A stretch of DNA of 45,452 nucleotides from Methanosarcinaceae archaeon. Its GTDB lineage: Archaea; Halobacteriota; Methanosarcinia; Methanosarcinales; Methanosarcinaceae. How positions within the stretch are numbered: the stretch's first letter is position 1; each line of letters starts with the position of its first letter. Positions 16,291-45,394 of the stretch are shown piece after piece. The notes under the pieces are model-generated. The model was not told the DNA's origin, did not search any database, and saw only the letters and a program-made list of their open reading frames with translations. Made by a program: the position numbers and the translations under genes. The stretch covers positions 1-45,452 of the forward strand of contig JAFGOO010000074.1 of the NCBI GenBank assembly GCA_016926455.1, in the 5' to 3' direction.

Positions 16291-16313
16291 ATTTAAATCC
16301 TCTTTTATTTCAA

Positions 16314-17197: not shown

Positions 17198-18301
17198 ATG
17201 GATAAAATCAAAATCGCAATTATAGGTCTTGGAAATTGTGCGAGTTCATTGATTCAAGGCATCGAGTATTACAAAAACAAAAAAGACAATGATGCGATCG
17301 GTTTGATGCACTGGGAAATCGGAGGCTATAAACCTAGTGATATTAAAGTTGTTGCTGCATTTGACATTGATGGGAGGAAAGTGGGGAAGGATGTATCAGA
17401 AGCGATGTTTGAACTCCCAAACTGCACAACAGTTTTTTACAAAGACATCCCAAAGACCGGAACCATTGTGAGAATGGGGAAAGTTCTAGATGGAATTGCA
17501 GACCATATGAAAGATTTCGATGATAAATACACCTTTGTTCTGGCAGACGAGACTGAACCCTCAAAAGAGGAGATAGTCAGCATACTGCAAGAATCGGGAG
17601 CAGAGATACTGTTGAATTATCTGCCCGTGGGTTCTGAGGATGCTACACGTTTTTATGCTGAATGTGCTCTTGAAGCTGGATTGGGATACATCAACAATAT
17701 GCCTGTTTTTATAGCGAGTGATCCGTATTGGTCTGTGAGATTCAAAGAAAAAGGCATTCCTATAGTTGGTGACGATATAAAGGCCCAGATTGGTGCTACA
17801 ATCACCCACAGGACGCTGGCTGACCTTTTCAGAAAAAGGGGGGTGAAATTGGAAAGGACGTACCAGATAAACACTGGAGGAAACACTGATTTCCTTAACA
17901 TGCTCAACAGAAACAGGCTTGTCTCAAAAAGGATTTCCAAGACAGAGGCAGTCCAGTCCGTTGCAGCCGAGAGGCTTGATGATGAAAATATCCATATTGG
18001 ACCCAGTGATTATGTTCCATGGCAAAAGGATAACAAGGTGTGTTTCTTAAGGATGGAAGGCAGGCTCTTCGGTGATGTGCCGATGAATATGGAACTGAGG
18101 TTATCTGTGGAAGATTCACCGAATTCCGCTGGCGTGGTCATCGATGCTGTCAGATGTTGCAAACTGGCACTTGATAGGGGAATAGGTGGAATTTTGACCT
18201 CACCCTCTGCATACTTCATGAAACATCCACCTAGACAGTACACAGATGACGATGCATGCAGGATGACCGATGAGTTCATCGCCGGCAAAAGAGATAGCTG
18301 A
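17198..18301 (+). CDS. ino1: myo-inositol-1-phosphate (inositol-3-phosphate) synthase, archaeal short type
   Basis: IAIIGLGNCASSLIQG Rossmann N-terminus, ...NTGGNTDF... and ...SKRISKT... motifs of the MIPS family; 367 aa. Confidence 0.88.
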   Translation: MDKIKIAIIGLGNCASSLIQGIEYYKNKKDNDAIGLMHWEIGGYKPSDIKVVAAFDIDGRKVGKDVSEAMFELPNCTTVFYKDIPKTGTIVRMGKVLDGIADHMKDFDDKYTFVLADETEPSKEEIVSILQESGAEILLNYLPVGSEDATRFYAECALEAGLGYINNMPVFIASDPYWSVRFKEKGIPIVGDDIKAQIGATITHRTLADLFRKRGVKLERTYQINTGGNTDFLNMLNRNRLVSKRISKTEAVQSVAAERLDDENIHIGPSDYVPWQKDNKVCFLRMEGRLFGDVPMNMELRLSVEDSPNSAGVVIDAVRCCKLALDRGIGGILTSPSAYFMKHPPRQYTDDDACRMTDEFIAGKRDS

Positions 18302-19130
18302 ATGTTCATCTCTTGATGTTCCAAATAGTGTTTTTGGGATTGATTTCAGTGGCGCAGAGAATGCCTACAAGAAGATCTGGGTCAGCAAAGGAACCATCAC
18401 CAGCAACATTCTGCACATTCATGAGTCACGACGAATAGCAGATTACATGCAGAAAGGAAACAAGCATGTAAGCCGGGATAAGTGTCTTATTATACTTAAA
18501 AAGCTTATCGCAGGTGAGCAACATGCAGCTTTTGGTCTCGATTTTCCTTTTTCGTTACCCACCTTGGTTTTGGACAATGAAGATTGGGATGCCTTTGTAA
18601 GGCAGTTCCCGGAAAGGTATAAGACACCAGAGCAGTTCCGTGAGTCCTGCCGCAATGCAACTCAGAACAAAGAGTTCAAAAGGCGTACGGAAAAGGAAAA
18701 CAAGGCACCATTCTGTGCTTATAACCTTTGGCTCTTTAAGCAGACCTATTTTGGAATCCGGGATGTTCTTCGCCCACTTGCAATCGGTAAAAAGGCCTGC
18801 ATCCTTCCAGTGCAATCGTGTGAAAAGGGAAAACCTTGGGTCCTTGAAATCTGTCCTGCATCTACACTAAAGCAGGAAGGTGTATACATTCCCTACAAAG
18901 GTAAAACGGAAGTAAAACAACAGTCTCGAAGCCAGATTCTTGAGTATCTGTCCACTAGAGGCGTTTTGGTATCTTCCGATGTGCTTGAAATTGCAATCGA
19001 AAACAGTGAAGGTGATGCACTGGACAGTGTTATTGCAGCGTTTGCCACCTATCGGGCACTACAGGAACCTGAAAAACTTACGACAACGCGTCCTGCTATC
19101 TATAAAAGAGAGGGGTATATTTTTGCTTAG
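18270..19130 (+). CDS. hypothetical protein, DUF429-like (predicted RNase H-fold)
   Basis: VFGIDFSG near the N-terminus, EICPASTLK and GDALDSVIAA resemble DUF429. The start overlaps the ino1 end by 32 nt, so the start is uncertain. Confidence 0.45.
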   Translation: MSSSPAKEIAECSSLDVPNSVFGIDFSGAENAYKKIWVSKGTITSNILHIHESRRIADYMQKGNKHVSRDKCLIILKKLIAGEQHAAFGLDFPFSLPTLVLDNEDWDAFVRQFPERYKTPEQFRESCRNATQNKEFKRRTEKENKAPFCAYNLWLFKQTYFGIRDVLRPLAIGKKACILPVQSCEKGKPWVLEICPASTLKQEGVYIPYKGKTEVKQQSRSQILEYLSTRGVLVSSDVLEIAIENSEGDALDSVIAAFATYRALQEPEKLTTTRPAIYKREGYIFA

Positions 19131-19213
19131 TATAAAAGGATAAAAAACTAACACATTAAAATCAAATACGCCGCCTGAACCCGTAAAAGTTTTCAAGCGG
19201 CTTGAACGTCCAC

Positions 19214-19759
19214 CTATCCCCGTTTTACCCCGACGATGTCATAGATATCTTCTGGTTTTTCCATGATCGTGATGTTCTCCATCTCTGCCAATTTTTCAGA
19301 ATTCGATACATCGATCTCGCGCATCTTGAGTATCATTTCCTTCCCCATAGGTGAATAAGTTTTGACCTTCCCACGCGTTTGGTCCACAGGGAGAATGTAG
19401 ATAGGTGTACTGCCTTTTGAGGTCTGGGCCACGGCATTGGTCACCAGTGTATCAGCGATACCGTGTACCATCTTTGCCACGGTGTTCGCTGTTGCTGGTG
19501 CAATTAAAAGCATATCATAATACCCCAGCTGGAGCGGTCCGGCAATAAAGGGTGAATTGGGACCAGCATCTATCTTGAAATTAGGGAAATCTCTCTGGAT
19601 GTCATCCCACATCCGGTACCATTTCATCACGGTTTCCCCTTCTTTTGACAAAAAGACCATGAAATCAATATCGGTTTTCTTCTTGATATCCACCATGACA
19701 TTATACGTCTCACGTATAAGGTCTCCTGAACCTGTAATTCCCCATGCTATGCGTTTCAA
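19214..19759 (-). CDS. afpA: archaeoflavoprotein AfpA-like FMN protein (HFCD superfamily)
   Basis: MKRIAWGITGSGD..., ...LLIAPATANTVAKMVHGIADTLVTNA motifs of the flavoprotein/HFCD fold; 181 aa. Confidence 0.75.
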   Translation of the reverse strand: MKRIAWGITGSGDLIRETYNVMVDIKKKTDIDFMVFLSKEGETVMKWYRMWDDIQRDFPNFKIDAGPNSPFIAGPLQLGYYDMLLIAPATANTVAKMVHGIADTLVTNAVAQTSKGSTPIYILPVDQTRGKVKTYSPMGKEMILKMREIDVSNSEKLAEMENITIMEKPEDIYDIVGVKRG

Positions 19760-19790
19760 TTTATTTCCTCCTCTGATTGTTTTTAACTAA

Positions 19791-20366
19791 TTAATAACTC
19801 CTACCCCAAAGTTCAAAGTATGCCCTCTCGTGCGCACATGCAGGACATTCCTCAGGTGCCTCTTCATCGTAATGAATATAGCCGCAGTTGCGGCATTTCC
19901 ACTTCATGACACTATTGCGCTTAAATACACTGTTCTTGTCGATATTCTCAATGAGTGCAAGGTATCGTTCTTCATGACCCTTCTCAGCGATTGCTATATT
20001 CCTGAAGACATATGCAATTTCTGAAAATCCTTCCTTTTCAGCAGTTTCTGCAAACTCTGGATACATCTGTGTATGTTCGTAGTTCTCACCCAAGGCTGAA
20101 GCTTCAAGATTAGATCTGGTATTACCTATTATGCCAGCAGGGAAGGATGCCGTGATCTGCAGCTCACCACCTTCGAGGAACTTAAAAAGCCTTTTAGCAT
20201 GTTCTTTCTCGTTATCCGCGGTCTCCAAGAATATACCAGCTATCTGTTCATATCCTGCCTTTTTTGCCTCAGATGCAAAATATGTGTAGCGGTTTCGGGC
20301 CTGTGACTCACCTGAAAATGCGGTTAAAAGGTTCTTTTCGGTTTGCGTTCCTTTCAATTTTTCCAT
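19791..20366 (-). CDS. rbr: rubrerythrin
   Basis: [21 protein letters not shown], two EEx2H diiron motifs and a C-terminal rubredoxin-like CRNCG...CPAC. Confidence 0.92.
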
Positions 20367-20417
20367 ATTTTTATTCTCCTATACTTATGATTCATTACAA
20401 AAACCTCTATTCCCTCA

Positions 20418-21128
20418 TCAATCTTGATACTCTGTAAAATATTCTTTTTTAATACGCTCCACTGGTATTCTAAAATCACTCATCAGTTGTACCATGACTT
20501 CCATAAGCCTTGGGGGACCGCATAGATAGAATACGCGTTCCCTGTAATCCGCTATCTCCCTTGCTATCAAGTTCTCGCAGATCCGCTCTCGGCAACCTTT
20601 CCATTCATCTCCTGCCCGTGTCAGTGTGTGCACAACTTTCAGGTTTTTGTTCTGCAATTGTAACTGCTCAAGTTCGTCCCTGAAAGCAATGTCTTTCTCG
20701 GTTTTATTACTGCTCACAAGAGTTACTTTGGTCCCGAGTTTTAGGTCAGTGCAGTACCTGCAGATACTTATCATTGGAGTAATCCCAATGCCTCCACTTA
20801 GAAGTGCTATTTTATTGTATTCCCCTTCAAAGGTCATCTGTCCATAAGGACCGTCAATACCCACTAAATCACCGGTGACCAAGACATCAAGAACATTGGA
20901 AAAATCATGTCCAGTAAACTTTTTCGTAAATTCTATATGGTCTTTTTTGGTCGGGCTGCTTGAGATGGTAAAAGGTTTGCGCATCTTTTCGTCCAAGACA
21001 TTAAGAGTGATGAACATGTATTGTCCAGCTTTATAATCAAAATCTACCGGTCTCTTAAACCTGAAACTTTTTACATCATGGGTCTGCTGTATGATTTCTG
21101 TGACAACTTCATCGAATTCCACAACCAA
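20418..21128 (-). CDS. FNR-like FAD/NAD(P)-binding oxidoreductase
   Basis: RKPFTISS (RxYS-type FAD motif), GGIGITPM NAD(P) motif and a LCGPP tail. TTG or GTG start. Confidence 0.78.
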   Translation of the reverse strand: MVVEFDEVVTEIIQQTHDVKSFRFKRPVDFDYKAGQYMFITLNVLDEKMRKPFTISSSPTKKDHIEFTKKFTGHDFSNVLDVLVTGDLVGIDGPYGQMTFEGEYNKIALLSGGIGITPMISICRYCTDLKLGTKVTLVSSNKTEKDIAFRDELEQLQLQNKNLKVVHTLTRAGDEWKGCRERICENLIAREIADYRERVFYLCGPPRLMEVMVQLMSDFRIPVERIKKEYFTEYQD

Positions 21129-34046: not shown

Positions 34047-35021
34047 TTAAAGTGCTGACATGGTGTTGTATTTTAGTACTGTTGAGACTGGATGTGTGAC
34101 TACTTCAATACCCGCTTCTTCCACTGCGGCAATCGCGTTGATACCTACAATAACCGGAATCCCCGACCTACCAATATCCACCGGCGCTCCGAAGACTTCT
34201 TCGCTAGCCTCTCCAATTATTATCGCACCGCTGATATCCGATTCCTCTGCAAGTTTTAATATCTCGTTCGCCTTTTCACAAGCTGAGGCAGGAATTTGTC
34301 TAATGTTTGAAAGCACTTTCCCTGTACCTTTTTCCATCACTTCAAGGACAGATGTCGAGTGTCTGTTAAGGAATATCTTGATTGGGTCAATAGATGTACC
34401 GCTATAGGATATAAGGTCAAGAAACTTGACATTTTCCTGATTTTCAATCTGCAGGATGCCACCGTAGGAGGTTTTCACCGGTATTCCGTATTTTAAGAGA
34501 AGACCGTCAAATGTTATACTACACACGGTTGCGATTCCGATTTTGTCGGGTGGTACATAAATATCTGAGTCAGAATCCTCTTCAAATATTTTAACACGTG
34601 GGCTAATTACCATTCCACTCTCTGCTGCGTATTTCATTATGGCCACAGCATCATCAAAATCGTCTTTGTCAAGATAGGAGAAATTTATGATTACGTCCCC
34701 CTCTTTTGATTTTAGGTCATAATTTGTATTGTAGATTAACTTCTCGATACGTGTGATAACAAATCCTAGACGGTCCCCGATAAGTGCATCATCGAGCTCT
34801 TTTCTGCCCATTTCCGTAATCGTGCGGCCGGCATATCCGTATTTTTTAGTGAATCCACGCTCATCCAGTATTCGTAAATGATAGCGTACGGCACGCTCGC
34901 CAATACCGTATCCGCGGTTGTTTAGTTCATCAGCGATGTTCCGGGCACCGATGGGTTTATCACTCTCGTTAATAATCCGCATTATTTCTATGAGTTTTCT
35001 TTCAATCTGTGGTTCTGTCAT
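34047..35021 (-). CDS. nrpR: nitrogen repressor NrpR (winged-HTH + one NRD/DUF128 domain, NrpRI type)
   Basis: N-terminal IERKLIEIMRII..S.KPIGARNIA.EL...GY.I.ERAVRYHLRILDERGFT followed by a DUF128-like domain. Neighbours glnA. Confidence 0.82.
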   Translation of the reverse strand: MTEPQIERKLIEIMRIINESDKPIGARNIADELNNRGYGIGERAVRYHLRILDERGFTKKYGYAGRTITEMGRKELDDALIGDRLGFVITRIEKLIYNTNYDLKSKEGDVIINFSYLDKDDFDDAVAIMKYAAESGMVISPRVKIFEEDSDSDIYVPPDKIGIATVCSITFDGLLLKYGIPVKTSYGGILQIENQENVKFLDLISYSGTSIDPIKIFLNRHSTSVLEVMEKGTGKVLSNIRQIPASACEKANEILKLAEESDISGAIIIGEASEEVFGAPVDIGRSGIPVIVGINAIAAVEEAGIEVVTHPVSTVLKYNTMSAL

Positions 35022-35344
35022 TTTTTAACACCGAAATTAAGATCATATTTGTAGCTTGTTTGTCCAGAGTATCACGATTAAATTGAGATTACTGTGATTT
35101 TAAGCCTTCATTGTAGTCTTAGATTATTATGTTGTGTGTCATATTATTCACTTGATTTAAATTTGTTGTCATCAATAGTAGACACATTTAATTTCAAAGA
35201 ATAAGATGTTAAAGCCTAAGCTACTTAGCGTATGTTTGTATATTGAATAAGTCGTAGAGGTCGCGAAATAAGCGTTTGTAAAAAAAAGGACGTATACTGA
35301 CTTTTGTGACCACTCCTATTACTTAAGTTATAGGAACTATCGAT

Positions 35345-35877
35345 TTTACGATAATTGGGGTGTAGGGGGTACGATTAATCCCATGACTAAAGTCATGGGA
35401 TTAATCGTACCCCCACCTATCATAGAATGTAACATAACAACTCGAAATTAGCTAAGTCTATTCACGATGCAGGATGGGCAAGGTTAATTCTGCATACTAT
35501 ATACAAAGCTGCTGAGAAGGGAAAGATCGTTTAAAAGGTTGATCCCAAAAACACTTCTCAGGTATGTTCAGTATGTGGTAAAAAGAAAAAAAGCAAACTT
35601 CAATTGTCAGATAGAATATTTGATTGTGAACATTGCAACACTTCATTAGACAGGGATGTTAATGTAGCAGTCAATATACTGAATAGATCTAAAAGATATC
35701 AAAGTACCATGAGGCTCTCGGGAACTAACGGCTCTGGAATTGGAACCTCTACAACCAGTTGTTTAACTGGGTTGCAAGTTCCGACAATGAATCAGCAATT
35801 GCGTAAAGCATTAGAAGATGAAACTCCTTTAGGGTTCAATAAAAGAACCCCACGACTTTAGTCGTGGGAGTAGTCAG
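35345..35877 (+). mobile_element. internally deleted IS200/IS605-family (IS1341/TnpB-only type) element remnant
   Basis: A left-end repeat with a 50-bp palindrome (35365-35414), a TnpB C-terminal fragment, and the right-end hairpin CCACGAC-TTTA-GTCGTGG followed by GAGTAGTCAG (35849-35877). Confidence 0.7.
35433..35861 (+). pseudogene. tnpB: tnpB (IS605 OrfB / RNA-guided nuclease family), C-terminal fragment with an in-frame stop
   Basis: Translation ...SIHDAGWARLILHTIYKAAEKGKIV*KVDPKNTSQVCSVCGKKKKS..LSDRIFDCEHCNTSLDRDVNVAVNIL. This is the RuvC-II / CxxC...CxxC zinc ribbon / RuvC-III (DRD.NAA.NI) region. TAA lies at 35532-35534, and roughly the N-terminal 250 aa are missing. Confidence 0.8.
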
Positions 35878-35882
35878 GGCCC

Positions 35883-37217
35883 TTACATGATACTTAGATA
35901 CGTATCCAGTTCCCATGGGTGGACGCATGCCTTGTATTTATCCCACTCAGCGTTCTTTGCTTTCAGGTATTTTTCAAACACATGGTCACCGAGTACATTT
36001 CTAACAAATCCACTAGAACTCATGGCATCTATTGACTCTTTTAAGTTTCCAGGCAATGATTCGATACCCATCTCAGAGTGCTCTTCTTTTGTAAGTTCAA
36101 ATATGTTCTTCTTAATCGGCTTGCCTGGATCAATCTTGTTTTTGATACCATCAAGCCCTGCACGCATCATCAGTGCAAATGCAAGGTATGGGTTGCAGGT
36201 GGGATCTGGACATCTTAACTCTACACGGGTTCCTTTTCCTCTTGCAGCAGGGATTCGGATAAGTGAACTTCTGTTTGCATCAGACCATGTGATGTATATA
36301 GGTGCTTCGTAACCGGGCACCAGTCTTTTGTAAGAGTTAACAAGAGGATTTGTGATTGCCGCAGTCTCTCTTACGTGTGCAAGCAGGCCACCGATATAAT
36401 ATCTTGCAGTTTCGGAAAGACCGTTTGGAGAATCAGGATCATAGAATGCGTTTTTGCCGTCTCCAATGGTCATCAGCGACTGGTTGGTGTGCATGCCCGA
36501 ACCATTAACTCCATAAAGTGGCTTTGGCATGAATGTGGCATAGTAGCCTTTGTGATATGCTATGGACTTGACCACGTACTTGAATGTTATTACGTTGTCT
36601 GCTGTAGTTAGCACATCATCGAATCTGAAATCGATCTCATGCTGTGATGGAGCTACTTCATGGTGTGATGCTTCTAGCTTGAATCCCATGTATTCAAGGG
36701 CGTAGTCAATTTCCCTCCTCACATCCTGTGCCTTGTCCAGTGGCGCAAAATCAAAGTATCCTCCTTGGTCAGTGAGTTCTGTAGTTGGGTTTCCGTTCTC
36801 ATCCAATTTGAAGAGAAAAAATTCGAGTTCAGGCCCCACGTTCATTTTAAATCCCATTTTTTTGGCTTCTTCGATTGCGTTTTTTAGTACGTATCGTGGG
36901 TCACCTTTAAATGGTGTGCAGTCAGGGAGCATTACGTCTCCAATTATACGTGCAACTGCGCCTTCACGCGGTCTCCATGGAAGTATGCGGAAGGTATTGG
37001 GATCAGGCATCAGCATCATGTCGGATTCTTCGATTCTTGTGAATCCTTCGATGGATGAACCATCAAACATTACACCGTTTTTGAATGCTTCCTCAAGATC
37101 TTCTGCTGGGATTGCCCAGCTTTTAATAATTCCAAGTGTATCTGTAAATTGTGTTCTTATGAACTTTACGTCGCAGTCACCTATTTTTTTTAGTACATCT
37201 TCTTTTGTTTGTACCAT
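35883..37217 (-). CDS. glnA: glutamine synthetase type I
   Basis: VKFIRTQFTD.LG, GSSIEGF, NGSGMHTNQS and ...RIP.. motifs. The track ORF starts at GTG 37226; ATG 37217, preceded by GAAGGTGA, is preferred. Confidence 0.95.
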   Translation of the reverse strand: MVQTKEDVLKKIGDCDVKFIRTQFTDTLGIIKSWAIPAEDLEEAFKNGVMFDGSSIEGFTRIEESDMMLMPDPNTFRILPWRPREGAVARIIGDVMLPDCTPFKGDPRYVLKNAIEEAKKMGFKMNVGPELEFFLFKLDENGNPTTELTDQGGYFDFAPLDKAQDVRREIDYALEYMGFKLEASHHEVAPSQHEIDFRFDDVLTTADNVITFKYVVKSIAYHKGYYATFMPKPLYGVNGSGMHTNQSLMTIGDGKNAFYDPDSPNGLSETARYYIGGLLAHVRETAAITNPLVNSYKRLVPGYEAPIYITWSDANRSSLIRIPAARGKGTRVELRCPDPTCNPYLAFALMMRAGLDGIKNKIDPGKPIKKNIFELTKEEHSEMGIESLPGNLKESIDAMSSSGFVRNVLGDHVFEKYLKAKNAEWDKYKACVHPWELDTYLSIM

Positions 37218-37243
37218 TTGTTTCACCTTCGCAGTAGGTATTA

Positions 37244-37611: not shown

Positions 37612-38445
37612 ATGCATAGGCCTTCAATACCCGCTGAAGTGAAGCAAATGACCTGGAGATTCATCGACACTGACAAAATAGATGGCTACTACAGTGCAGC
37701 TTTATTCGAATCAACCGCTAGGCATGTGGGGGCTGGCGAAGTTGATGAGACCATCCTTTTCTGGCGTGTAAAAAGTCCGGCCGTCTATCTTGGATACCAC
37801 CAGTACGTGGAAGATGAGATATGCGAAGATTATTGTACTGAAAATGGCATTCAGGTAATCCGCAGGGTGCTTGGTGGAGGGTGTGGATTCTGCGATGAGA
37901 ACCAGATTCTTTTTTCCATTATAGGATGTGAAGGAAGTGGTATAATCCCATCAAGCATAGAAGATGCGTATTCACATGTTCTTGGGGGGGTTACGACTGC
38001 ACTTGAATCCCTTGGTTTTGAAAGTGAATTCGAACCCACCCGCAGTTCTATTAATTCTAGAGGGCGCAAGATATCTGGAAATGCTCAGGGCAGGATCAAT
38101 GGGGCAGTACTAGTCAATGGTAGTTTACTGCTGGATTTTGATTTTGATGAGATGGACAGAGTGCTAAAAAACCCCACAAAGAACCTTACTTCTGGCGTGC
38201 AACATGCCCGGGATGGGATGATAACGCTCAAAGATTTACTTAATGGTGAAAATTATTATATCGATCATGTAAAAAAGATACTTAAAAGTGGATTTGAAAT
38301 TGTACTTGGTGTGGAAACGAAAAATGGTGTTCTTACAAAATCAGAAATCGAACTTTCCAACCATTTGGTTGAACGTCACCGCCGGAGTGAGTGGATATAC
38401 CGAATGGACAACAAAAGGAGAAAAAGACTGGAAAGCAAAAAATAA
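37612..38445 (+). CDS. lplA: lipoate-protein ligase, catalytic (LplA N-terminal / BPL_LplA_LipB) domain protein
   Basis: RRVLGGGCGFCD (RRxxGGGxVxxD motif) and GRKISGNAQ (catalytic Lys). ATG 37645 (MTWRFIDTD...) is an equally good start. Confidence 0.82.
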   Translation: MHRPSIPAEVKQMTWRFIDTDKIDGYYSAALFESTARHVGAGEVDETILFWRVKSPAVYLGYHQYVEDEICEDYCTENGIQVIRRVLGGGCGFCDENQILFSIIGCEGSGIIPSSIEDAYSHVLGGVTTALESLGFESEFEPTRSSINSRGRKISGNAQGRINGAVLVNGSLLLDFDFDEMDRVLKNPTKNLTSGVQHARDGMITLKDLLNGENYYIDHVKKILKSGFEIVLGVETKNGVLTKSEIELSNHLVERHRRSEWIYRMDNKRRKRLESKK

Positions 38446-38502
38446 GCTTATTGATAATGCACTTCTGCATAAAAAGCCGCATAATCAGAAACGAGGCAAA
38501 AC

Positions 38503-38793
38503 ATGAGCTACGAAGGATACAAACAGGGAAAGCACAAATCAAAAGGCGGTCTTATCCGTTCTTTTGTCAAGTTAAAAGACAATACTATAGAAGACATCTC
38601 ATTTTCAGGGGATTTTTTCCTGTTCCCAGAATCTTCAATCGAACTGGTTATGGGGTCCTTAAAAGGAACCGTTGCCACGTATGATTCCGTACTTCATACT
38701 GTAAGGGTGGTATATGACTTTGAAGGAATAACTGCACCGGGCACCGCTCCAGAAGATTTTGCAATTTCCATCATGAAGGCAATAGAATCTTAA
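38503..38793 (+). CDS. lplB: lipoate-protein ligase accessory C-terminal-domain protein (LplB-like)
   Basis: 96 aa; KGGLIRSFVKLKDNTIEDISFSGDFF.FPE pattern of the LplA C-terminal domain as a stand-alone polypeptide, as in bipartite archaeal ligases. Confidence 0.7.
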   Translation: MSYEGYKQGKHKSKGGLIRSFVKLKDNTIEDISFSGDFFLFPESSIELVMGSLKGTVATYDSVLHTVRVVYDFEGITAPGTAPEDFAISIMKAIES

Positions 38794-38811
38794 ATCAAAA
38801 AGCATTGTTTA

Positions 38812-39813
38812 ATGAATATGTGCCACTTAACCCCTGAAATGTTCACCCCAGACATCCACAAAAGGATGCTAAAAGCAAAACAAAAATCACTTGAAAATTA
38901 TGGCAAAAAACTGAATTTTTTCATTACATCAGACATCTTTCCTTCTGTATCCCTAACGGGCAGCCACTGCCAATTAAGTTGCAAGCATTGCGAAGGCAGG
39001 CTCCTCAAACGCCTGATACCTGCTACATCACCTGTAAAGTTTGAGAAGGTTGCACGCCAGCTTGCAAAAAACAGTGCCAGAGGATTGCTCATAACTGGCG
39101 GATGTGATGAGGCGGGAAAACTCCCGACTGTAAATTTTGCGGAGTCCATAAAAAGGATTAAACAGGAAACAGACCTCATCCTCATAGCTCATACTGGTTT
39201 CATTTCGCGTGGGGATGCATTTATTTTGAAAGATAGTGGTCTTGATGGCATCGCATTCGATGTGGTTGGGGACATTGAAACCGTCAACCGCGTTTACGGC
39301 TTAAAGGTCACCGAAAATGATTATTTGCAAAGCCTTCAGGCTATTTCAGAAGTCGGGATTAATGTCCTGCCACATGTCTGTGTGGGACTTGATTTCGGTA
39401 GTATCCGTGGAGAACTCAAGGCACTTGAAATTATTAGGCATATTAACCCTTCCACATTAATAATAACCGGCCTCATGCCAATTGTGGGCACGCCTATGTC
39501 AGCAGTCAGGCCAGATCCTCGTGATTTTGCAGAGGTGTTCTGCAGGGCGGCAGAATTGTTTCCTGAGGTTCAGATAACTCTTGGTTGCTCCCATTCCATT
39601 GGTCGTGATCGTGAGATGATAGAATTAATTGCACTGGAGAGTGGTGTTTTCAATATTGCAATCCCTACCTGCAATTTTGTAAAACATGCATTTTCGGAAG
39701 GGTATAAAGTAGAATATTTTGGCACCTGCTGCGGGGTACGGCCTACGGATTCTACTTGCATCGACTCAAATATATCCCATAACAGTGAATGGGTTTATGC
39801 TACTCTAAAATGA
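38812..39813 (+). CDS. radical SAM protein, LipS-type candidate lipoyl synthase component (paralogue A)
   Basis: VSLTGSHCQLSCKHCEG (CX3CX2C), GLLITGGCDE and PHVCVGLDFG. C-terminal CC motif (GTCCG). Alignable along its whole length with 40846-41829. Confidence 0.75.
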   Translation: MNMCHLTPEMFTPDIHKRMLKAKQKSLENYGKKLNFFITSDIFPSVSLTGSHCQLSCKHCEGRLLKRLIPATSPVKFEKVARQLAKNSARGLLITGGCDEAGKLPTVNFAESIKRIKQETDLILIAHTGFISRGDAFILKDSGLDGIAFDVVGDIETVNRVYGLKVTENDYLQSLQAISEVGINVLPHVCVGLDFGSIRGELKALEIIRHINPSTLIITGLMPIVGTPMSAVRPDPRDFAEVFCRAAELFPEVQITLGCSHSIGRDREMIELIALESGVFNIAIPTCNFVKHAFSEGYKVEYFGTCCGVRPTDSTCIDSNISHNSEWVYATLK

Positions 39814-39832
39814 ATTATTTTAACTCTCTGGT

Positions 39833-40846
39833 ATGATTCCCATGCAAACTGAACCATCCTGTAAAAAAGTTCGCGCATCTCTTGGTACGCTTGGGGTGCT
39901 TGGAATGGAATTCTTAATGATGGATGCACCTCCTACAACTGCGTATCTGCAGATATACACGGATAAACGCTGCATTGCAAACTGCCGTTTTTGCTCACAG
40001 GCTGGGGGAGGAGACGGCGATTTGAAGAAAATAGCACGTGGTATGTACATACCATCCGACTTCGATAACGTTGTGTTAAGACTTGGAATTGCATTTGAGC
40101 GTGGTTACCTTAAGAGGGCGTGCATCCAGACTGCAATGTATCCTGAGATGTGGGAGGATACCACACACCTTATCAAAAGCATTAGGGAACTAAGCCTAAT
40201 TCCGATTTCTGTATCCGTTTTCCCTCTGAGTGATGAAAAATATTCTACCTTAAAGGATTTAGGTGTTGATAAACTGGTGATTCCGCTTGATGCATGCAAC
40301 TGCAAACTGTTCAGTTTTATCAAGGGCAAGGAAGCCCACAGCATCTATGAATGGGATTCACACCTTGACGGGATTAAGCGTGCAACCCGGATATTAGGGA
40401 GGGGGTCGGTGGGTACACATCTAATTATCGGAATGGGGGAAAGTGCTGAAGATGCACTTGAATTGATAAGCAAACTGCATGGAGAAGGTGTTTACTCTGC
40501 TCTTTTTGCTTATACCCACCTTCCGGGAACTCGAAATATTCCTTCAAACCTGAATATTAAACACTACCGATCTGTTCAATTTGGTGCCTATTTGATTCGT
40601 GAGAACCTTGTATCCTTTGCAGACATGGCCTTCGTGTCCGGCGAAGTGGTGGATTTTGGAATTCCAGAGGTCGATATACAGAGCCTATTAAAAAGTGGCG
40701 AAGCATTCAAAACAACAGGTTGTCCAGACTGTAACCGTCCTTATGCCACAGAGACCCATCAGGAGATATTCAATTATCCCTGCGAACCTAATGAAAACGA
40801 AATCGGCGTCATCAGGGAGCAACTTGGGATCACTGGTGAGAAATAA
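39833..40846 (+). CDS. radical SAM protein, BioB/LipA-like fold (second LipS-type candidate)
   Basis: YTDKRCIANCRFCSQ (CX3CX2C), THLIIGMGES (BioB-like G.GET-type motif) and a C-terminal GCPDCN...C cysteine cluster. Confidence 0.75.
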   Translation: MIPMQTEPSCKKVRASLGTLGVLGMEFLMMDAPPTTAYLQIYTDKRCIANCRFCSQAGGGDGDLKKIARGMYIPSDFDNVVLRLGIAFERGYLKRACIQTAMYPEMWEDTTHLIKSIRELSLIPISVSVFPLSDEKYSTLKDLGVDKLVIPLDACNCKLFSFIKGKEAHSIYEWDSHLDGIKRATRILGRGSVGTHLIIGMGESAEDALELISKLHGEGVYSALFAYTHLPGTRNIPSNLNIKHYRSVQFGAYLIRENLVSFADMAFVSGEVVDFGIPEVDIQSLLKSGEAFKTTGCPDCNRPYATETHQEIFNYPCEPNENEIGVIREQLGITGEK

Positions 40847-41829
40847 TGAGCGAAATCGGAAGACGGTTGGAAAATGTGGATATGATCCGCAAGAGAGTAT
40901 TGGAGAAAATAGACGAACTGGATTTAAGTGAAACTACAAAGGAAGAGATGTCTAAATCCTTTAAATCCAGGCTAAATTCATTTTCAACTAATATTATTTT
41001 CTTTACTAAACCTTTCACTCCGGTTTCTGTTACAGGTACGGAGTGCGAACTGAATTGCAAACACTGTGAAAAAATCTACTTAAAACACATGCTTGATGGA
41101 AGCCACGGTAAACTCAGTGCTATTGCTCAAAATCTGGCTTTAAGAGGACATCGTGGAATCCTCCTGTCCGGTGGCAGCAAAACCGATGGGTCAGTTCCCA
41201 GTTATGAAGTTTCCGACGAGATTCGCCGAATCAAAGACGACACACACCTGCAAATAAGTGCCCACACCGGAATCGTAACAGAAGAACAGGCAAAACAGCT
41301 TTCTCCATGGCTTAACATGGCACTTGTTGACTGTATCGGAAGTGACGCCACGATCTCGGGTATACTGGGGCTTCCAAACACAGTTGATGATTATGACCGC
41401 ACACTCAGGTTCCTGACAGAAAACGGTGTTCCTATCGCACCACATATCATCGTGGGGTTAAACCATGGAAAGCTGGATGGCGAGTTCATTGCAATCGATA
41501 TGGTTAAAAAATATAATCCGAATGTTGTTGTGATTGTTATTTTCATTCCCACAAAGGGTACTAACTGCGCAGATGCTCATAATCCTTTAATAGAGGATGT
41601 TGCAAAAGTGATTATCCGGGCAAGGCAGGAGATGCCCGATATCCCCCTATCCTTGAGTTGTGTGCGTCCCGGAGGAAGGTATCGTTCGAGGCTTGATGAA
41701 TGTGCAATTCTCTGTGGTATCGACCGGATTGCAGTTCCGAGCCGAAGTGCCTATAATCTGTGCAAAGATGTAGGATTGAAAATTCATGAGGTTGATAAAT
41801 ATTGCTGTTCTTATGAGGTAATAGTGTGA
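40846..41829 (+). CDS. radical SAM protein, LipS-type candidate (paralogue B of 38812-39813)
   Basis: VSVTGTECELNCKHCEK, GILLSGGSKTDG and PHIIVGLNHG. C-terminal CC motif (KYCCS). The start overlaps the upstream stop (TAATG). Confidence 0.75.
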   Translation: MSEIGRRLENVDMIRKRVLEKIDELDLSETTKEEMSKSFKSRLNSFSTNIIFFTKPFTPVSVTGTECELNCKHCEKIYLKHMLDGSHGKLSAIAQNLALRGHRGILLSGGSKTDGSVPSYEVSDEIRRIKDDTHLQISAHTGIVTEEQAKQLSPWLNMALVDCIGSDATISGILGLPNTVDDYDRTLRFLTENGVPIAPHIIVGLNHGKLDGEFIAIDMVKKYNPNVVVIVIFIPTKGTNCADAHNPLIEDVAKVIIRARQEMPDIPLSLSCVRPGGRYRSRLDECAILCGIDRIAVPSRSAYNLCKDVGLKIHEVDKYCCSYEVIV

Positions 41830-42734
41830 AAATTGCGGCTTCATATAAGGATATAAAAATCATGGCACCAGATGATGCATCCTTTTCATTTTTCAAAAGT
41901 CCCTTTGCAGCGCATGATACAGGTAGTGCTGTAGACATTGCTTATGGTGATTTCGGTTCTATGGCAGTTTTACCGGTAGATGGAACAGTTGTTGATGTCA
42001 AAGAGTTCGATTCCCCAACTCCCTTTAAGGATCGTGATTTCAAGGAGTACATAACAGCAATCCTTTGTGGTGAGCTGCTTGTAAAGATACTGCATGTCAA
42101 ACCTGCTGTTAAGATTGGGGATTGCATTCGTGCTGGGGAATATTTTGGAACATTCATAAGAAGTGGTTACTATTATTTCTGGAATTTCCCACACTTGCAT
42201 GTTGAAGTCCGAAGGCCGGATGATTATTTGCGGGCGAGCAACAACATGGTGCTTGATGTGCCGGTTTGTGTCATTGAAAAATGTAATAATAAACCTGAAA
42301 ATCTCAGTGTTTTCGAATTTAAAGGCGAAGTTGTGTTTTCCAATAATATGTATGCACTCGTAGACTGCCCTGATTATAGCACTTTTGGTCTGGTCAATGG
42401 TTATTCTGTTAAAGGTTTCTTGCTTGATGGATTTATTCCAATAGGTGAACATGCGCTACAAAGATTTGGTTTAATAGGTACAAAACAAAATGTTCCGCCA
42501 TTTAAATATTTCAAGTCAATTGGCGATTCGTATCTGGTACACCCGTCAAGTGTGAATCTTAGAGTATTTGATGGAAATGACCAATTGTTAAAAGTTGCAG
42601 GAGCATCATTTATTTTAAGCTTTGGTAAACCTTTAATAAAATTAGTTCCTACACAACATGGCGCATGCCTTCCACAATGCGGTGAGAAGATTACCGTTAA
42701 AATTGCAAAACGTATACATTGCATGTTAAAGTAA
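41826..42734 (+). CDS. hypothetical cytoplasmic protein with an M23/LytM-like (duplicated hybrid motif) domain
   Basis: AAHDTGSAVDIAYG..G..V.PVDGTVVDV ... ILHVKPAVKIGDCIRAGEYFGT ... FPHLHVEVRR resembles the M23 H..D / HxH core. No signal peptide. GTGA overlap with the upstream gene. Confidence 0.45.
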   Translation: MKIAASYKDIKIMAPDDASFSFFKSPFAAHDTGSAVDIAYGDFGSMAVLPVDGTVVDVKEFDSPTPFKDRDFKEYITAILCGELLVKILHVKPAVKIGDCIRAGEYFGTFIRSGYYYFWNFPHLHVEVRRPDDYLRASNNMVLDVPVCVIEKCNNKPENLSVFEFKGEVVFSNNMYALVDCPDYSTFGLVNGYSVKGFLLDGFIPIGEHALQRFGLIGTKQNVPPFKYFKSIGDSYLVHPSSVNLRVFDGNDQLLKVAGASFILSFGKPLIKLVPTQHGACLPQCGEKITVKIAKRIHCMLK

Positions 42735-42753
42735 AAGAAATTGAGGCGAATTT

Positions 42754-43179
42754 GTGAAAGTTGAAGATTTTGATTTCCCCGAAGATAGACTATATTTAAA
42801 AAATCATGTATGGGTCAAGCCTTATGGGGACATTATCCATATCGGTATCACGGAACTCGGGCAATCGCTTTCCAAAGGGATAGTACATATCGACCTACCA
42901 GATGTTGGTGATATTATCCACAAGGATGATTTTTTGGTCGCATACGAGACCATCAAGGCAGTATCACAGATATCACTTCCATTTGAGTGCACGGTTGTAA
43001 GCGTCAATGATGACCTATGGGATGACCCAAATATCATAAATAACGATCCTTATAATATCTATATGGTGGAAGTAAAAGGGGATTATGAGAACAGCGGCTT
43101 GATGGGTGTCGTGGAAGCTGTTGCGTACTATGGGGATTTGATCGCAAAAGAGAGAGAACGTTACGAAGGATACGAATGA
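42754..43179 (+). CDS. GcvH-like lipoyl-carrier protein, divergent paralogue 1
   Basis: LYLKNHVWVK...GIT..G, the acceptor-lysine motif YETIKAVSQISLP and NNDPYN.YMVEV. GTG start after GAGGCG. Confidence 0.75.
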   Translation: MKVEDFDFPEDRLYLKNHVWVKPYGDIIHIGITELGQSLSKGIVHIDLPDVGDIIHKDDFLVAYETIKAVSQISLPFECTVVSVNDDLWDDPNIINNDPYNIYMVEVKGDYENSGLMGVVEAVAYYGDLIAKERERYEGYE

Positions 43180-43212
43180 TATGATTGATATCTTTTTAGG
43201 AGGAGATAACCA

Positions 43213-43632
43213 ATGGAAATAGAAGGATATGAACTACCTGATGAGCTGTATTATACCCAGGATCATGTATGGGCAAGGGTGGAGGATGACGGAAACGTCA
43301 GAGTAGGAATGAATTCATACGGTGCTGTTGCTGCAGGAACAATCGAATTTATTGACTTACCAGCGGTAGATGACGAATTTGAAGCAGGCGAAGCATTCGG
43401 GTCATTGGAATCTGCAAAGTGGGTAGGTGGACTTACCATGCCTGTCAGCGGTAAAATCATTGAAGTAAATGAAGATATTGAAGACGACCTTGAACTGATT
43501 GCAGAAGAGCCGTATGGAGATGGCTGGTTGGTTTTGATCGAGCCGTCCAAACTGGATGAAGACCTTGAAAAACTCATCCATGGTGGTGCAATTAAACCAT
43601 GGTTTGAGGAAGATCTTGCATCAAGAGAGTAA
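43213..43632 (+). CDS. GcvH-like lipoyl-carrier protein, paralogue 2
   Basis: YYTQDHVWARVEDDG, the acceptor-lysine motif SLESAKWVGGLTMPVSGKIIEVN and EEPYGDGWLV. Strong RBS TAGGAGGAG. Confidence 0.8.
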   Translation: MEIEGYELPDELYYTQDHVWARVEDDGNVRVGMNSYGAVAAGTIEFIDLPAVDDEFEAGEAFGSLESAKWVGGLTMPVSGKIIEVNEDIEDDLELIAEEPYGDGWLVLIEPSKLDEDLEKLIHGGAIKPWFEEDLASRE

Positions 43633-43652
43633 AAATATTTTTAATTACTTAT

Positions 43653-43694
43653 GTCTTTGCAGTGAGATTTATCCCAGCAAAGACTACTTTTTTT
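43653..43694 (+). terminator. hairpin plus T-tract between convergent genes
   Basis: GTCTTTGC (43653-43660) pairs with GCAAAGAC (43677-43684) and is followed by T7 at 43688-43694. Confidence 0.4.
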
Positions 43695-44439
43695 ATATCC
43701 TGTAGTTCCATTTATCTGATTTATATTTAGGCAAAAGTTCCTGTGCTGTCTGTTCTTCAGCTTTGCTAGGTTTTGAATCCACTAGTTGTACACCAAAACG
43801 TTCCTCGAATTTTTGCCGAATCACTCCTCTCACCTTTTCCATTTCCACTTTCTCAGGGAGTTCTTTATCCATCCATGTCATTCCTTCTTCGATAGAGACA
43901 ACCTGTTTATCGCTTATCTTCTCAAGCGGGATATTTGAGAGACTAAGCATTTCCTTTATATCAAAATCTAAAAGTAGTGTACCATGCTGCAGAAGTTTGC
44001 CGTTCCACCTTGTCTGTGCATTGCCTGAGATTTTCCTGCCGTCAACAATGACATCGTTTATAGGTCTAAAATCAGCATTCAATCCATACTCGTACAGTGT
44101 ATCTATTAGCATGCCGCATATCTGGTGGTATGAATCCGTGACATCAAGCGGAAACAGTTTATCATCTATCGTACCAATGACGCCGTAGTTGACCTGACGC
44201 CCCCGATCATCCGAGAATGCAAGTCCTCCACCACTTATGCGCCGTACGATTGTGTAATCCTTGCATCGCTTAAGGTTCAGTTCCACATCTGCCTTCTGAA
44301 AATATCCAAGGATAATGGATTTGGTGGGATCCCAGAATATCAAGGTGTTTCCCTCATCGTTTTTCAGGATAGATTCGTTCATTGCCATCATGTACCTGAT
44401 GTCAACCTTTCCAAAATCGATTACTCGCCATTCATCCAT
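43693..44439 (-). CDS. second lipoate/octanoate-protein ligase-like protein (catalytic domain only)
   Basis: RRISGGGLAFSD and DGRKISGNAQ motifs. No partner C-terminal-domain gene next to it. The track ORF starts at TTG 44481; ATG 44439 (MDEWRVIDFG) is preferred. Confidence 0.78.
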   Translation of the reverse strand: MDEWRVIDFGKVDIRYMMAMNESILKNDEGNTLIFWDPTKSIILGYFQKADVELNLKRCKDYTIVRRISGGGLAFSDDRGRQVNYGVIGTIDDKLFPLDVTDSYHQICGMLIDTLYEYGLNADFRPINDVIVDGRKISGNAQTRWNGKLLQHGTLLLDFDIKEMLSLSNIPLEKISDKQVVSIEEGMTWMDKELPEKVEMEKVRGVIRQKFEERFGVQLVDSKPSKAEEQTAQELLPKYKSDKWNYRI

Positions 44440-44527
44440 TTGATCACTTTTGAAATAGCAGGTATGTTTTAACTTCGACAAATATTGAGACCGAAATAAG
44501 AGTCTATAATTTTGTATTATTATTATA

Positions 44528-45394
44528 TTATTTCATCTTGCGTATTGCGAACTCACATGCCTTCGATAGTGGATCATATGCTTCAGCTACAGCAGGACAG
44601 TATGCAAGTTCCGTACTGTAGAGGTCGTGCAGGTCCATTCCAGCTTTGATTGCAAGAGATATCAGATTTACCCGCGCAGCTGCGCCTTCTTCGCCGATTG
44701 CCTGACCACCTATTATTTTTCCGGTTTTTGCATCTGCCAGTATCTTAACGGTAATTTCCTTGGCACCCGGATACTATTCAGGTCTGGTGAACCCGCTTGC
44801 TTTTCCGATGACGACTTCATATCCTGCGGATTTTGCAAAGAACTGATTGAAACCGGTTGCTGAAACTTCTATTTTACCTATGACCGAAACAAAGGTTGTC
44901 AGGGAACCCCCAAATGTATCATAACCACCAGCAGCGTTAGTTCCTGCTGTGATCTCCTGGCGGTAGGCAGTGGTCGAAAGCTGTGACATCCATGGCATGT
45001 GGTTTATTGGACTTACGGTCTCAACACAATCACCGATTGCATAAATTCCTGGAATACTTGTTTCCGTCTTTGCATTGGTCATAATTCCCCAGTTTCCAAG
45101 TTTGCATCCCGCATCCTTTGCTAGATCCCAGTTAGCGCGAACACCGGATGCCATAATCACCATATCCGCCGGAAGAATTTCACCGTTTACGGTTACAGAC
45201 GTGACTTTATTATCACCAGAAATATTCTCTAATGAGGCGCCCATCATTAATTTGATACCCGTTTCCTTAAGACTCTTTTCAAGAATCCTTGCAATATCTG
45301 GATCAATTGATTTCGGGAAGGAGTGTGGTAGCATTTCAACCAGCGTCACATCAATGTTTTTTGCTTTAACCCAACTTTGACAGTTTTCTCTCCT
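44528..45394 (-). pseudogene. pyridine nucleotide-disulfide oxidoreductase (NADH oxidase / CoA-disulfide reductase family), interrupted by an in-frame TAG and lacking a recognisable N-terminal part
   Basis: ...VTLVEMLP..., GIYAIGDCVE, then RPE-TAG(44774-44776)-YPGAKEITVKIL...AYCP...DP (intact dimerisation domain) to TAA 44528-44530 in the same frame. Upstream, the same frame hits TAA at 45395-45397 and no GxGxxG is seen. Confidence 0.5.

Follow-up and report, generated by a model that had tools for sequence, protein, structure and literature searches.

A predicted self-contained lipoylation gene cluster with two dedicated GcvH-like carriers in an uncultured Methanosarcinaceae lineage

Introduction

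In Thermococcus kodakarensis, lipoate is built by two radical S-adenosylmethionine (radical-SAM) enzymes: LipS2 thiolates C8 of octanoyl-lysine, and LipS1 works only on the resulting 8-mercapto intermediate, at C6 (Neti 2022, PMC9585515). The Lpl(AB)-LipS1/S2 pathway, which adds a bipartite ligase, was established in bacteria by Tanabe et al. (2023, PMC10332631), who also surveyed prokaryotes for it. The main text of that study is silent on methanogens and anaerobic methanotrophic (ANME) archaea, for which gene presence is given in the supplementary tables only. Here, we analysed a stretch of 45,452 nucleotides from a Methanosarcinaceae archaeon (assembly GCA_016926455.1, contig JAFGOO010000074.1, positions 1 to 45,452 of the forward strand), hereafter called the window, in which nine genes for ligases, LipS enzymes, GcvH-like carriers and a DUF8155 protein form a compact cluster. 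From its sequence, we read this cluster as a self-contained lipoylation module for two stand-alone H-type carriers that would act in thiol/disulfide redox chemistry and not in glycine cleavage, and we assign a probability of about 0.55 to this reading.

To our knowledge, methanogens and related archaea are a textbook case of organisms that lack lipoate-dependent enzymes. Full-text literature searches yielded no paper linking ANME archaea or Methanoperedens with lipoate, lipoyl or glycine cleavage. The cluster is not categorically new, since pathway and carrier type have been described before and the presence of the genes has already been tabulated (Tanabe et al. 2023, PMC10332631). New aspects are the conserved arrangement of nine genes, the presence of a second LipS1, DUF8155 as its partner and the link to methanogen-type heterodisulfide reductase (Hdr) in methane-cycle archaea without known lipoate-dependent enzymes.

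Gene content and layout of the cluster

Eight co-directional genes occupy positions 37612-43632 in the order lplA-lplB-lipS1a-lipS2-lipS1b-DUF8155-carrier 1-carrier 2 (g1 to g8, Table 1), with spacers of exactly 57, 18, 19, -1, -4, 19 and 33 nt. The ninth gene, lplA2 (g9), lies on the opposite strand and faces this array. An earlier note, made by a model from the letters of the sequence, had described the same packing and the same convergent ligase gene, and all nine open reading frames (ORFs) and spacers were recovered exactly in our ORF table. The hairpin and T-tract that it placed at the end of the operon were found as well, with a folding free energy of -11.9 kcal/mol (z = -3.0). The arrangement is not a product of chance, because dozens of independent contigs from genomes and metagenomes carry the same gene set.

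Table 1 Features of the lipoylation cluster and its immediate surroundings (aa, amino acids)
Feature	Position in window	Strand	Size	Supporting match
lplA1 (g1), lipoate/octanoate-protein ligase catalytic subunit	37612..38445	+	277 aa	PF21948 E 8e-38; TIGR00545 114 bits
lplB (g2), small accessory subunit	38503..38793	+	96 aa	NF053749 64.4 bits (cut-off 65); PF10437 25.6 bits (above cut-off)
lipS1a (g3), LipS1-family radical-SAM sulfur insertase, Cys-rich subtype	38812..39813	+	333 aa	NF053742 214 bits (cut-off 230)
lipS2 (g4), LipS2 radical-SAM sulfur insertase	39833..40846	+	337 aa	NF053743 269.1 bits (cut-off 270)
lipS1b (g5), second LipS1-family insertase, translationally coupled to DUF8155	40846..41829	+	327 aa	NF053742 248 bits (above cut-off)
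DUF8155 protein (g6), N-terminal M23/LytM-fold and C-terminal beta-rich domain	41826..42734	+	302 aa	homologues carry PF26482
Carrier 1 (g7), GcvH/LbpA-like, predicted lipoyl-lysine K68 in ETIKA	42754..43179	+	141 aa	PF01597 E 4e-23
Carrier 2 (g8), GcvH/LbpA-like, predicted lipoyl-lysine K69 in ESAKW	43213..43632	+	139 aa	PF01597 E 1e-32
Hairpin and T7 tract between the convergent units	43653..43694	+	stem 8 bp (43653-43660/43677-43684)	RNA fold
lplA2 (g9), second LplA-family ligase or transferase without its own LplB	43693..44481	-	262 aa	PF21948 E 3.5e-42
CoA-disulfide-reductase/NADH-oxidase-family flavoprotein remnant, upstream of lplA2 on the same strand	44531..45370	-		92% identity to residues 170-449 of the L007 protein

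The first two genes encode a bipartite LplA/LplB ligase, as the earlier note had proposed. LplA1 combines the PF21948 domain with K153, the lysine of its RKISGNAQ sequence (RKxSGxA motif), which is invariant in orthologues, and the adjacent small ORF matches PF10437 and NF053749. LplA2 consists of the LplA catalytic domain only and is 31% identical to LplA1. When compared with NCBIfam profiles, it was scored as a ligase and not as LipM or LipL.

Both GcvH-like proteins named in the earlier note match PF01597 and align end-to-end with solved H proteins, while sharing only 28% identity with each other. The predicted lipoyl-lysines are invariant, K68 in 27 orthologues of carrier 1 and K69 in 20 orthologues of carrier 2. 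Carrier 1 falls under the NCBIfam cut-offs for GcvH (TIGR00527, 82.9 bits compared to 115.85). Carrier 2 reaches 127 bits on NF002270, which is above the cut-off of 117, and 110.3 bits on the equivalog TIGR00527, which is below 115.85. The GCV_H fold and the lipoyl-lysine are thus present in both, neither reaches the equivalog score, and the P, T and L partners of a glycine cleavage system are not encoded in the window. A scan of the window ORFs against Pfam, confined to the window, found no gcvP, gcvT, E2 or lpd gene, in agreement with the earlier note. That the two carriers receive different modifications, as also suggested there, is pure conjecture.

Two LipS1 enzymes and one LipS2

The number of three radical-SAM genes given in the earlier note is correct, but the BioB-like identity of g4 is not. 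The g4 product obtained a BioB score of just 38 bits, whereas its LipS2 score lies 0.9 bit below the cut-off, and the set consists of two LipS1 and one LipS2. For g3, the LipS1 profile NF053742 is by far the best family, although the score lies under the cut-off. The LipS1 proteins g3 and g5 are paralogues with 32% identity.

The cluster ligands of the T. kodakarensis enzymes were determined by mutagenesis (PMC9585515). They are C27/31/34 with C230, C276, C277 and H159 in LipS1 (TK2109), and C39/43/46 with C85, C276, C279 and H178 in LipS2 (TK2248). The LipS1 ligands correspond to C53/C57/C60 (CX3CX2C), H188, C259, C306 and C307 in g3 (100% conserved in 13 sequences) and to C67/C71/C74, H200, C272, C320 and C321 in g5 (100% conserved in 48 sequences). 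In both proteins the spacing of the ligands from the radical-SAM motif agrees with TK2109. The LipS2 ligands are found in g4 as C47/C51/C54, C97, an invariant histidine (H177 or H196), C297 and C300, and are conserved in its orthologues. Insertion of sulfur at C6 by g3 and g5 is predicted by analogy with the T. kodakarensis enzymology.

The paralogues differ in their active-site subtype. In g3, two additional invariant cysteines (C98 and C190) are present, a subtype seen in 27 of the 141 LipS1 representatives, whereas g5 has Ser/Ile at these positions. Each subtype is also common in other organisms that have just one LipS1. A BioB-type function of g3, considered on account of C98/C190, was rejected, since about 30-40% of LipS1 representatives have these cysteines and the BioB score is only 30 bits.

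A neighbour-joining tree of the 141 family representatives, of low resolution and thus indicative only, placed g3 and g5 within the LipS1 radiation as sister clades; sequences from Bathyarchaeota, Helarchaeota and EX4572-44 are found close to them. Each of the two has orthologues across ANME-2 families. The nearest relatives of g3 outside ANME archaea include LipS1-LipS2, LplA-LipS1 and LipT-LipS1 fusion proteins, and the family is therefore firmly tied to lipoate synthesis. For this reason, the robust clustering with non-lipoyl families that the earlier note had named as evidence against a lipoyl system was not observed; LipS1/LipS2 profiles, ligands and fusion relatives point the other way.

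DUF8155, an M23/LytM-fold protein coupled to LipS1b

The g6 protein had no match in the local Pfam library, including PF01551 at E <= 0.01, and a few of its homologues show weak PF01551 matches. An AlphaFold2 model built from a 16-sequence alignment had a predicted local distance difference test (pLDDT) value of 87. The N-terminal ~140 residues of this model matched M23 structures (lysostaphin, LasA, LytM and others) with Foldseek probabilities of 0.99-1.0, among them the catalytic domain of lysostaphin (4qpb, 1.0) and the full-length protein (5nmy, 0.99). The C-terminal ~150 residues, modelled alone, reached a pLDDT of 85 and had no structural match in the PDB. Judged by this model, the assignment of an M23 fold is sound, in line with the earlier note's description of the protein as M23-like.

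In an alignment of homologues, H30, D37, H90, H125 and E127 are invariant. No cysteine is conserved, for which reason a role as Fe-S scaffold or sulfur donor was rejected. Profile alignment to 8s3m showed that the family keeps D37 (the Asp of motif 1), H90 (the central His) and H125 (the last His of HxH). In the same alignment, the canonical HxxxD His corresponds to position 33, which varies between G, H and L; an invariant His stands three residues before it. Conservation is also lacking for the first His of HxH. Peptidase activity is doubtful because this active site is atypical for M23.

Host, distribution and synteny

The lysyl-tRNA synthetase (LysRS) encoded in the window is 72-77% identical to those of Methanococcoides, Methanolobus, Methanosarcina and metagenome-assembled genomes (MAGs) labelled 'Methanosarcinaceae archaeon', compared to 57-59% for ANME-2b/2d. 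The closest DUF8155 locus (L007, 86%) belongs to a Zodletone MAG with the accession prefix JAFGQV01. In the S3 table of Tanabe et al. (2023, PMC10332631), JAFGQV01 is the sole group among the listed Methanosarcinaceae genera (MTP4, Methanimicrococcus, Methanococcoides, Methanosarcina and others) with LipS1, LipS2, Lpl and 'LbpA1', and every cultured genus lacks these genes. Because of the LysRS identities and this entry, the host is probably an uncultured Methanosarcinaceae lineage near the GTDB genus JAFGQV01, with LysRS as the single marker. An ANME-2 host, first assumed from the DUF8155 hits, was rejected on the same grounds. The earlier note's methanogen-like host needs correction in that the cluster is otherwise a trait of ANME-2 methanotrophs, and cultured methanogens lack it.

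A pattern scan with one genome per GTDB species revealed 56 DUF8155 loci. Nearly all are from Ca. Methanoperedens (ANME-2d), Methanocomedens (2a), Methanogaster (2c), 'ANME-2 cluster' and Methanosarcinales/Methanosarcinaceae MAGs, and a few records carry generic archaeal labels only. A protein search gave the same distribution; as both searches use shared words or patterns, very distant members could be missed. Outside the host lineage, the pattern and protein searches found the nine-gene set only in ANME-2a/b/c/d. A metagenome scan with the ligases added 79 further contigs with the same modules. The cluster proteins are 65-72% identical to their ANME-2c-type orthologues, a level compatible with lateral exchange.

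The gene for g5 is adjacent to that for DUF8155 in every locus long enough to show both, often with a 4-nt overlap as in the window. About 60 loci from genomes, and additional ones from metagenomes, keep the unit LipS1b-DUF8155(-GcvH1-GcvH2), in which the two carriers usually come after DUF8155. In ANME-2a, all genes form one co-directional array, lplA1-lplB-lplA2-g3-lipS2-g5-DUF8155-gcvH1-gcvH2 (L031, L034, L037, L038, L040, L043). In Methanoperedens the parts are dispersed, with g3 alone and lipS2 elsewhere.

The same S3 table lists LipS1, LipS2, Lpl and 'LbpA1' for the marine ANME-2a/b/c genera and JAFGQV01, together with zero counts for E2, DHDL and sHdr, the Hdr-like system of sulfur oxidation (PMC10332631). 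This is in line with the earlier note, which described methanogens as generally regarded as lacking lipoate-dependent complexes. According to the supplementary tables, several Methanoperedens species additionally have LipA, E2, GcvH and DHDL (PMC10332631). The presence of this canonical set beside the cluster argues that the cluster serves its own carriers.

Two further observations were made in related contigs. In ANME-2d only, a conserved antisense ORF of ~160 aa (162 aa) lies between the DUF8155 gene and the first carrier gene (10797-11285 (-) in L006, and 28 other Methanoperedens-type loci); searches of Pfam and NCBIfam gave no match for it. A different, more distant cluster from another organism, found on bioreactor and other metagenome contigs (L109, L120), has the order GcvH-like - LplA-like - GcvH-like - fused Lpl(AB) - LipT-like - LipS2 - LipS1. 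Lipoate operons with embedded carriers thus exist beyond ANME-2.

Candidate redox partners

The genomic surroundings of the cluster in related lineages provide candidates for redox partners. A set of hdrC-hdrB-hdrA2/mvhD genes ends 89 nt upstream of lplA1 in L122, is located further upstream on the same strand as lplA1 in L123, L124, L125, L127 and L134 (within ~4.5 kb in L127), and is divergent from lplA1-lplB-g3 in L126, L129 and L130. In the ANME-2a genome locus L037, it is found upstream of the whole nine-gene array. The linked HdrB and HdrC score above the cut-offs for coenzyme B (CoB)-coenzyme M (CoM) heterodisulfide reductase, and HdrA2 is the best match of HdrA. In the ANME-2c-like locus L114 (1292-8801), the gene for a fused Lpl(AB) of 353 aa is separated by 13 nt from hdrC, after which come hdrB, an 827-aa hdrA/mvhD fusion and then a geranylgeranyl-reductase-family (LipT-like) gene that overlaps lplA1. 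The fused protein is a third paralogue of the lipoate ligases, encoded within an operon for CoB-CoM heterodisulfide reductase. Independently, the S5 table of Tanabe et al. flags the same fused ligase, a 353-aa LplA, inside an 'mHdr' cluster of two Methanogaster genomes (PMC10332631). The Hdr-like redox link suggested in the earlier note thus gains comparative support from relatives. In the window, no hdr, dsrE or tusA gene was found. No lipT gene was found in the window either.

The sole pyridine-nucleotide disulfide oxidoreductase gene in the window is of the CoA-disulfide-reductase (CoADR)/Nox type and is disrupted. Compared to the intact L007 protein, the N-terminal 169 residues are absent and an in-frame TAG (44774-44776) replaces a conserved Trp. 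In a Methanosarcinaceae host, the TAG could encode pyrrolysine, but a pseudogene is more likely because the first 169 codons are also absent. The family call was made via the L004 orthologue (TIGR03385, 264 bits, which is below the cut-off); the intact protein has 450 aa. Intact same-strand pairs with lplA2 are present in L004, L007, L015, L064-L075, L076 and L080, i.e. in more than 12 contigs of the window's clade and ANME-2c, while the gene is absent from ANME-2a and ANME-2d loci. An OCD2 (SbnB-like) gene stands beside it only in the Methanogaster locus L004 and the contigs L015 and L076.

LipT is the proposed electron donor for LipS1/S2. In Methanoperedens-type metagenome contigs (L081-L096), lplB-lplA2 is followed directly, often with an overlap, by a gene for a geranylgeranyl-reductase-family FAD protein resembling LipT. 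Nitrogen-assimilation genes are also found beside the cluster, namely nrpR and glnA in the window (34047-37226), glnA in the ANME-2a-like loci L089, L092 and L093, and archaeal glutamate synthase genes (gltB) upstream of hdrCBA-lplA1 in L122. This neighbourhood may reflect inherited synteny or co-regulation.

Two groups of neighbours were set aside. Sulfite-reductase, TusA and OCD genes near lipS2 of M. nitroreducens were treated as incidental, as they are restricted to a single lineage and the OCD protein is a bona fide archaeal alanine dehydrogenase (507 bits, above cut-off). The orf147 upstream of the fused ligase in L114, considered as a hidden carrier, is probably unrelated; its product matches no Pfam family and has a hydrophobic stretch at the N terminus, and the gene lies beside a PIN/RHH toxin-antitoxin pair.

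Proposed function

In the proposed mechanism, LplA1/LplB, possibly together with LplA2, would load free octanoate (or scavenged lipoate) onto K68 of carrier 1 and K69 of carrier 2. Following the order known from T. kodakarensis, LipS2 would add sulfur at C8 and a LipS1 enzyme would then add sulfur at C6, yielding lipoyl-lysine. DUF8155 most likely docks or presents the carriers instead of acting as a peptidase. The simplest explanation for its fixed pairing with LipS1b would be a carrier-specific insertase with a docking subunit, and the pair probably confers carrier specificity or performs an accessory step. By analogy to LbpA and sHdr, the lipoylated carriers may serve cytoplasmic thiol:disulfide oxidoreductases as swinging arms that carry a dithiol/disulfide or sulfur, and would have no part in glycine cleavage or 2-oxoacid dehydrogenases. 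The best candidates for such oxidoreductases are HdrA2B2C2/MvhD-type heterodisulfide reductase and the CoADR-like flavoprotein.

The earlier note had likewise proposed a self-contained dithiol-cofactor system. The complete LplA/LplB-LipS2-LipS1 route with its conserved residues and dedicated carriers agrees with that proposal. Its core inference is reasonable and is now backed by conserved residues, widespread synteny, a restricted distribution and the Hdr linkage in relatives. Its observation that the set is expanded beyond the known pathway is also correct, with two LipS1 next to LipS2, an M23-fold protein, two carriers and two LplA.

Several points weigh against this interpretation. Lipoylation of the carriers is deduced wholly from sequence, and the negative result for gcvP, gcvT, E2 and lpd covers the window. 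Carrier 2 passes the cut-off of a GcvH subfamily and could be a conventional H protein. Neither an hdr nor a lipT gene is located in the window, and its CoADR-like gene is disrupted. Adjacency to Hdr was found in only 5 of the 15 LplA1 sequence clusters, many of the contigs stem from related samples, and part of the signal may be synteny inherited together with the nitrogen-assimilation genes. The model leaves the requirement for two LipS1 enzymes unexplained. Finally, DUF8155 keeps D37, H90 and H125 but has lost the HxxxD His and the first HxH His, so that neither catalysis nor pure scaffolding can be asserted.

Alternative explanations

Among the alternatives, the one that goes furthest beyond the module proposed above is the least improbable, although it is still unlikely. 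It assumes an undescribed Hdr-coupled lipoyl-carrier system of ANME-2 and one Methanosarcinaceae lineage, in which the carriers serve HdrA2B2C2/MvhD as protein-bound dithiol substrates or electron carriers, LipS1b/DUF8155 possibly yield a non-canonical thiolated acyl group, and the whole would be an archaeal, methane-cycle counterpart and possible evolutionary source of bacterial sHdr-LbpA. A cofactor other than lipoate, for which LipS1b and DUF8155 add an extra or differently placed sulfur or use another acyl chain, with the two carriers differing, ranks below it as improbable. This would be in line with one LipS2 serving two old LipS1 paralogues of distinct active-site subtype (C98/C190 versus S/I), each kept across all ANME-2 families, with the obligatory pairing of LipS1b and the lineage-specific DUF8155, and with two ligases and two strongly diverged carriers. 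However, both paralogues keep the exact LipS1 ligand set and score as LipS1, both subtypes are common where LipS1 is single-copy, and no sign of altered regiochemistry is visible in the sequences. Less plausible again is a role in thiol antioxidant defence or repair without any link to Hdr, in which a CoADR/Nox-type flavoprotein and NAD(P)H would reduce the lipoyl carriers and thereby detoxify oxidants or disulfides. The Lpd-DlaT-AhpD system of mycobacteria and the GcvH-L/LplA2 stress operon of Firmicutes are models for such a function; the dedicated carrier with a second ligase mirrors the latter arrangement, and the pairing of the CoADR-like gene with lplA2 is conserved in the window's clade and ANME-2c. 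On the other hand, the reductase is a probable pseudogene in the window while the rest of the cluster is intact, ANME-2a and ANME-2d loci do without it, and no peroxiredoxin, AhpD, macrodomain or sirtuin gene is linked.

An ordinary lipoylation locus is doubtful and ranks behind these three. Its carriers would be the H protein, or part of a LipM-GcvH-LipL-like relay, for glycine cleavage or 2-oxoacid dehydrogenases encoded elsewhere. The NF002270 score of carrier 2 and the end-to-end alignment of both carriers with H proteins are what such a locus would show, the second LplA-family protein could be a LipL-like amidotransferase, and Methanoperedens genomes do contain E2, GcvH and DHDL. There, however, these proteins go with a separate LipA and the cluster is kept all the same; E2 and DHDL are zero in the marine ANME-2 genera and JAFGQV01, cultured Methanosarcinaceae have none of these genes, and gcvP, gcvT and lpd are absent from the window. 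We consider it very unlikely that the carriers are templates for synthesis, with DUF8155 as an amidase that releases (dihydro)lipoate or a mercapto-fatty acid. The M23 fold with invariant D37, H90, H125 and E127, the lack of an annotated signal peptide, an archaeal host without murein, the usual M23 substrate, and the coupling of the DUF8155 gene to that of the final sulfur insertase could be explained in this way, but neither the HxxxD His that binds Zn nor the catalytic first His of HxH is conserved, LytM domains without catalytic function are common, and no transporter or downstream tailoring gene is linked. Biosynthesis of CoB, in which the heptanoyl chain is terminally thiolated, was rejected: cultured methanogens also need CoB, yet none of them has the cluster. 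Taken together, we prefer the lipoylation module with stand-alone carriers in thiol/disulfide redox chemistry.

All ANME-2 families and one uncultured Methanosarcinaceae lineage thus retain a complete and strongly conserved lipoate-building operon with its own carriers. Should these carriers prove to be partners of heterodisulfide reductase, they would represent a new electron or sulfur carrier in the cytoplasmic electron flow of reverse methanogenesis. Such a partnership would also provide a concrete archaeal ancestor candidate for bacterial sHdr-LbpA sulfur oxidation, a first functional context for DUF8155 and a natural test case for the two LipS1 subtypes.

Other features of the window

The rest of the window encodes ordinary archaeal housekeeping functions (dapAB, tgt, trp genes, orc1/cdc6, class I LysRS, GAPDH, nrpR, glnA). 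Rfam and tRNA scans of the window found nothing. Upstream of orc1/cdc6 (12155-13390), a non-coding stretch of 1.3 kb (10865-12154) with a GC content down to ~0.30 contains TTTCCAGTTGAAAT-type elements, repeated in direct and inverted orientation at 11599-11618, 11766-11786 and 11805-11825. It looks like an archaeal replication origin with origin recognition boxes beside cdc6.

A series of oxidative-stress genes of the kind typical for anaerobes is located at 13425-21128, ~17 kb from the cluster. It comprises genes for an FprA-like flavodiiron protein, two rubrerythrins, a nitroreductase, a flavoprotein and a ferredoxin-NADP-reductase-like protein. Between nrpR and glnA, an 85-aa ORF (35604-35861 (+)) matches only the C-terminal TNB/zinc-ribbon part of TnpB/Cas12f-like proteins and is probably a remnant of an IS200/IS605-type element. 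The glnA-lplA1 intergenic region contains a perfect 23-nt inverted repeat (37291-37313/37512-37534) around 198 nt. This repeat occurs nowhere else in the window and would not be expected by chance. It may represent an insertion resembling a miniature inverted-repeat transposable element, or a regulatory structure in the promoter region of the operon.

Comparison with described systems

The Lpl(AB)-LipS1/S2 pathway, represented by TK2109/TK2248 of T. kodakarensis and the sLpl(AB)-LipS1/S2 sets of Thioalkalivibrio and Hyphomicrobium, shares with the present locus the bipartite LplA/LplB as well as LipS2 and LipS1, in which every defined Fe-S ligand is present. Clustering of the genes is common to both, and lplB is adjacent to lipS1 as in other archaea. 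The present locus differs in that it has two LipS1 paralogues where the pathway has one, a further LplA that lacks an LplB, the obligatory pairing of one LipS1 with DUF8155, two carrier genes within the operon and no lipT in the window. The gene order is also distinct, with lplA-lplB-lipS1a-lipS2-lipS1b compared to lipS2-lplA-lplB-lipS1.

The sHdr-LbpA systems of Hyphomicrobium denitrificans, Acidithiobacillus and Sulfolobales resemble the locus in having dedicated GcvH-like carriers with their own Lpl-LipS1/S2, and published hidden Markov models call the carriers of ANME-2 and JAFGQV01 'LbpA1'. Ligase genes stand beside Hdr-type genes in both cases, here in relatives of the host. However, the shdrC1B1AHC2B2 genes are missing, with sHdr zero in the census, no DsrE is linked, TusA is found only in the neighbourhood of the M. 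nitroreducens genes, and the linked Hdr is the methanogen-type HdrA2B2C2/MvhD for CoB-CoM. The hosts of sHdr-LbpA are sulfur oxidisers, whereas those described here are strict anaerobes of the methane cycle.

More than one enzyme of the LplA/LipB superfamily together with an H-type carrier is also a characteristic of the LipM-GcvH-LipL relay of Bacillus subtilis, and the second enzyme here could be a transferase. In contrast to that relay, no E2 acceptor is known in the lineages considered, LipS1/S2 takes the place of LipA, and LplA2 is classed as a ligase. The GcvH-L/LplA2/SirTM/macrodomain operon of Firmicutes likewise has an extra H-like carrier with a dedicated LplA paralogue outside central metabolism. 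The present cluster lacks sirtuin, macrodomain and luciferase-like monooxygenase genes, and has the full machinery for de novo sulfur insertion.

With M23/LytM proteins (LytM, lysostaphin, EnvC, SpoIIQ, LECT2), DUF8155 shares the fold; the motif 1 Asp, the central His and the last HxH His are also conserved. It is distinguished from them by a cytoplasmic archaeal context without murein, the replacement of the HxxxD His, the loss of the first HxH His and an added C-terminal beta domain.

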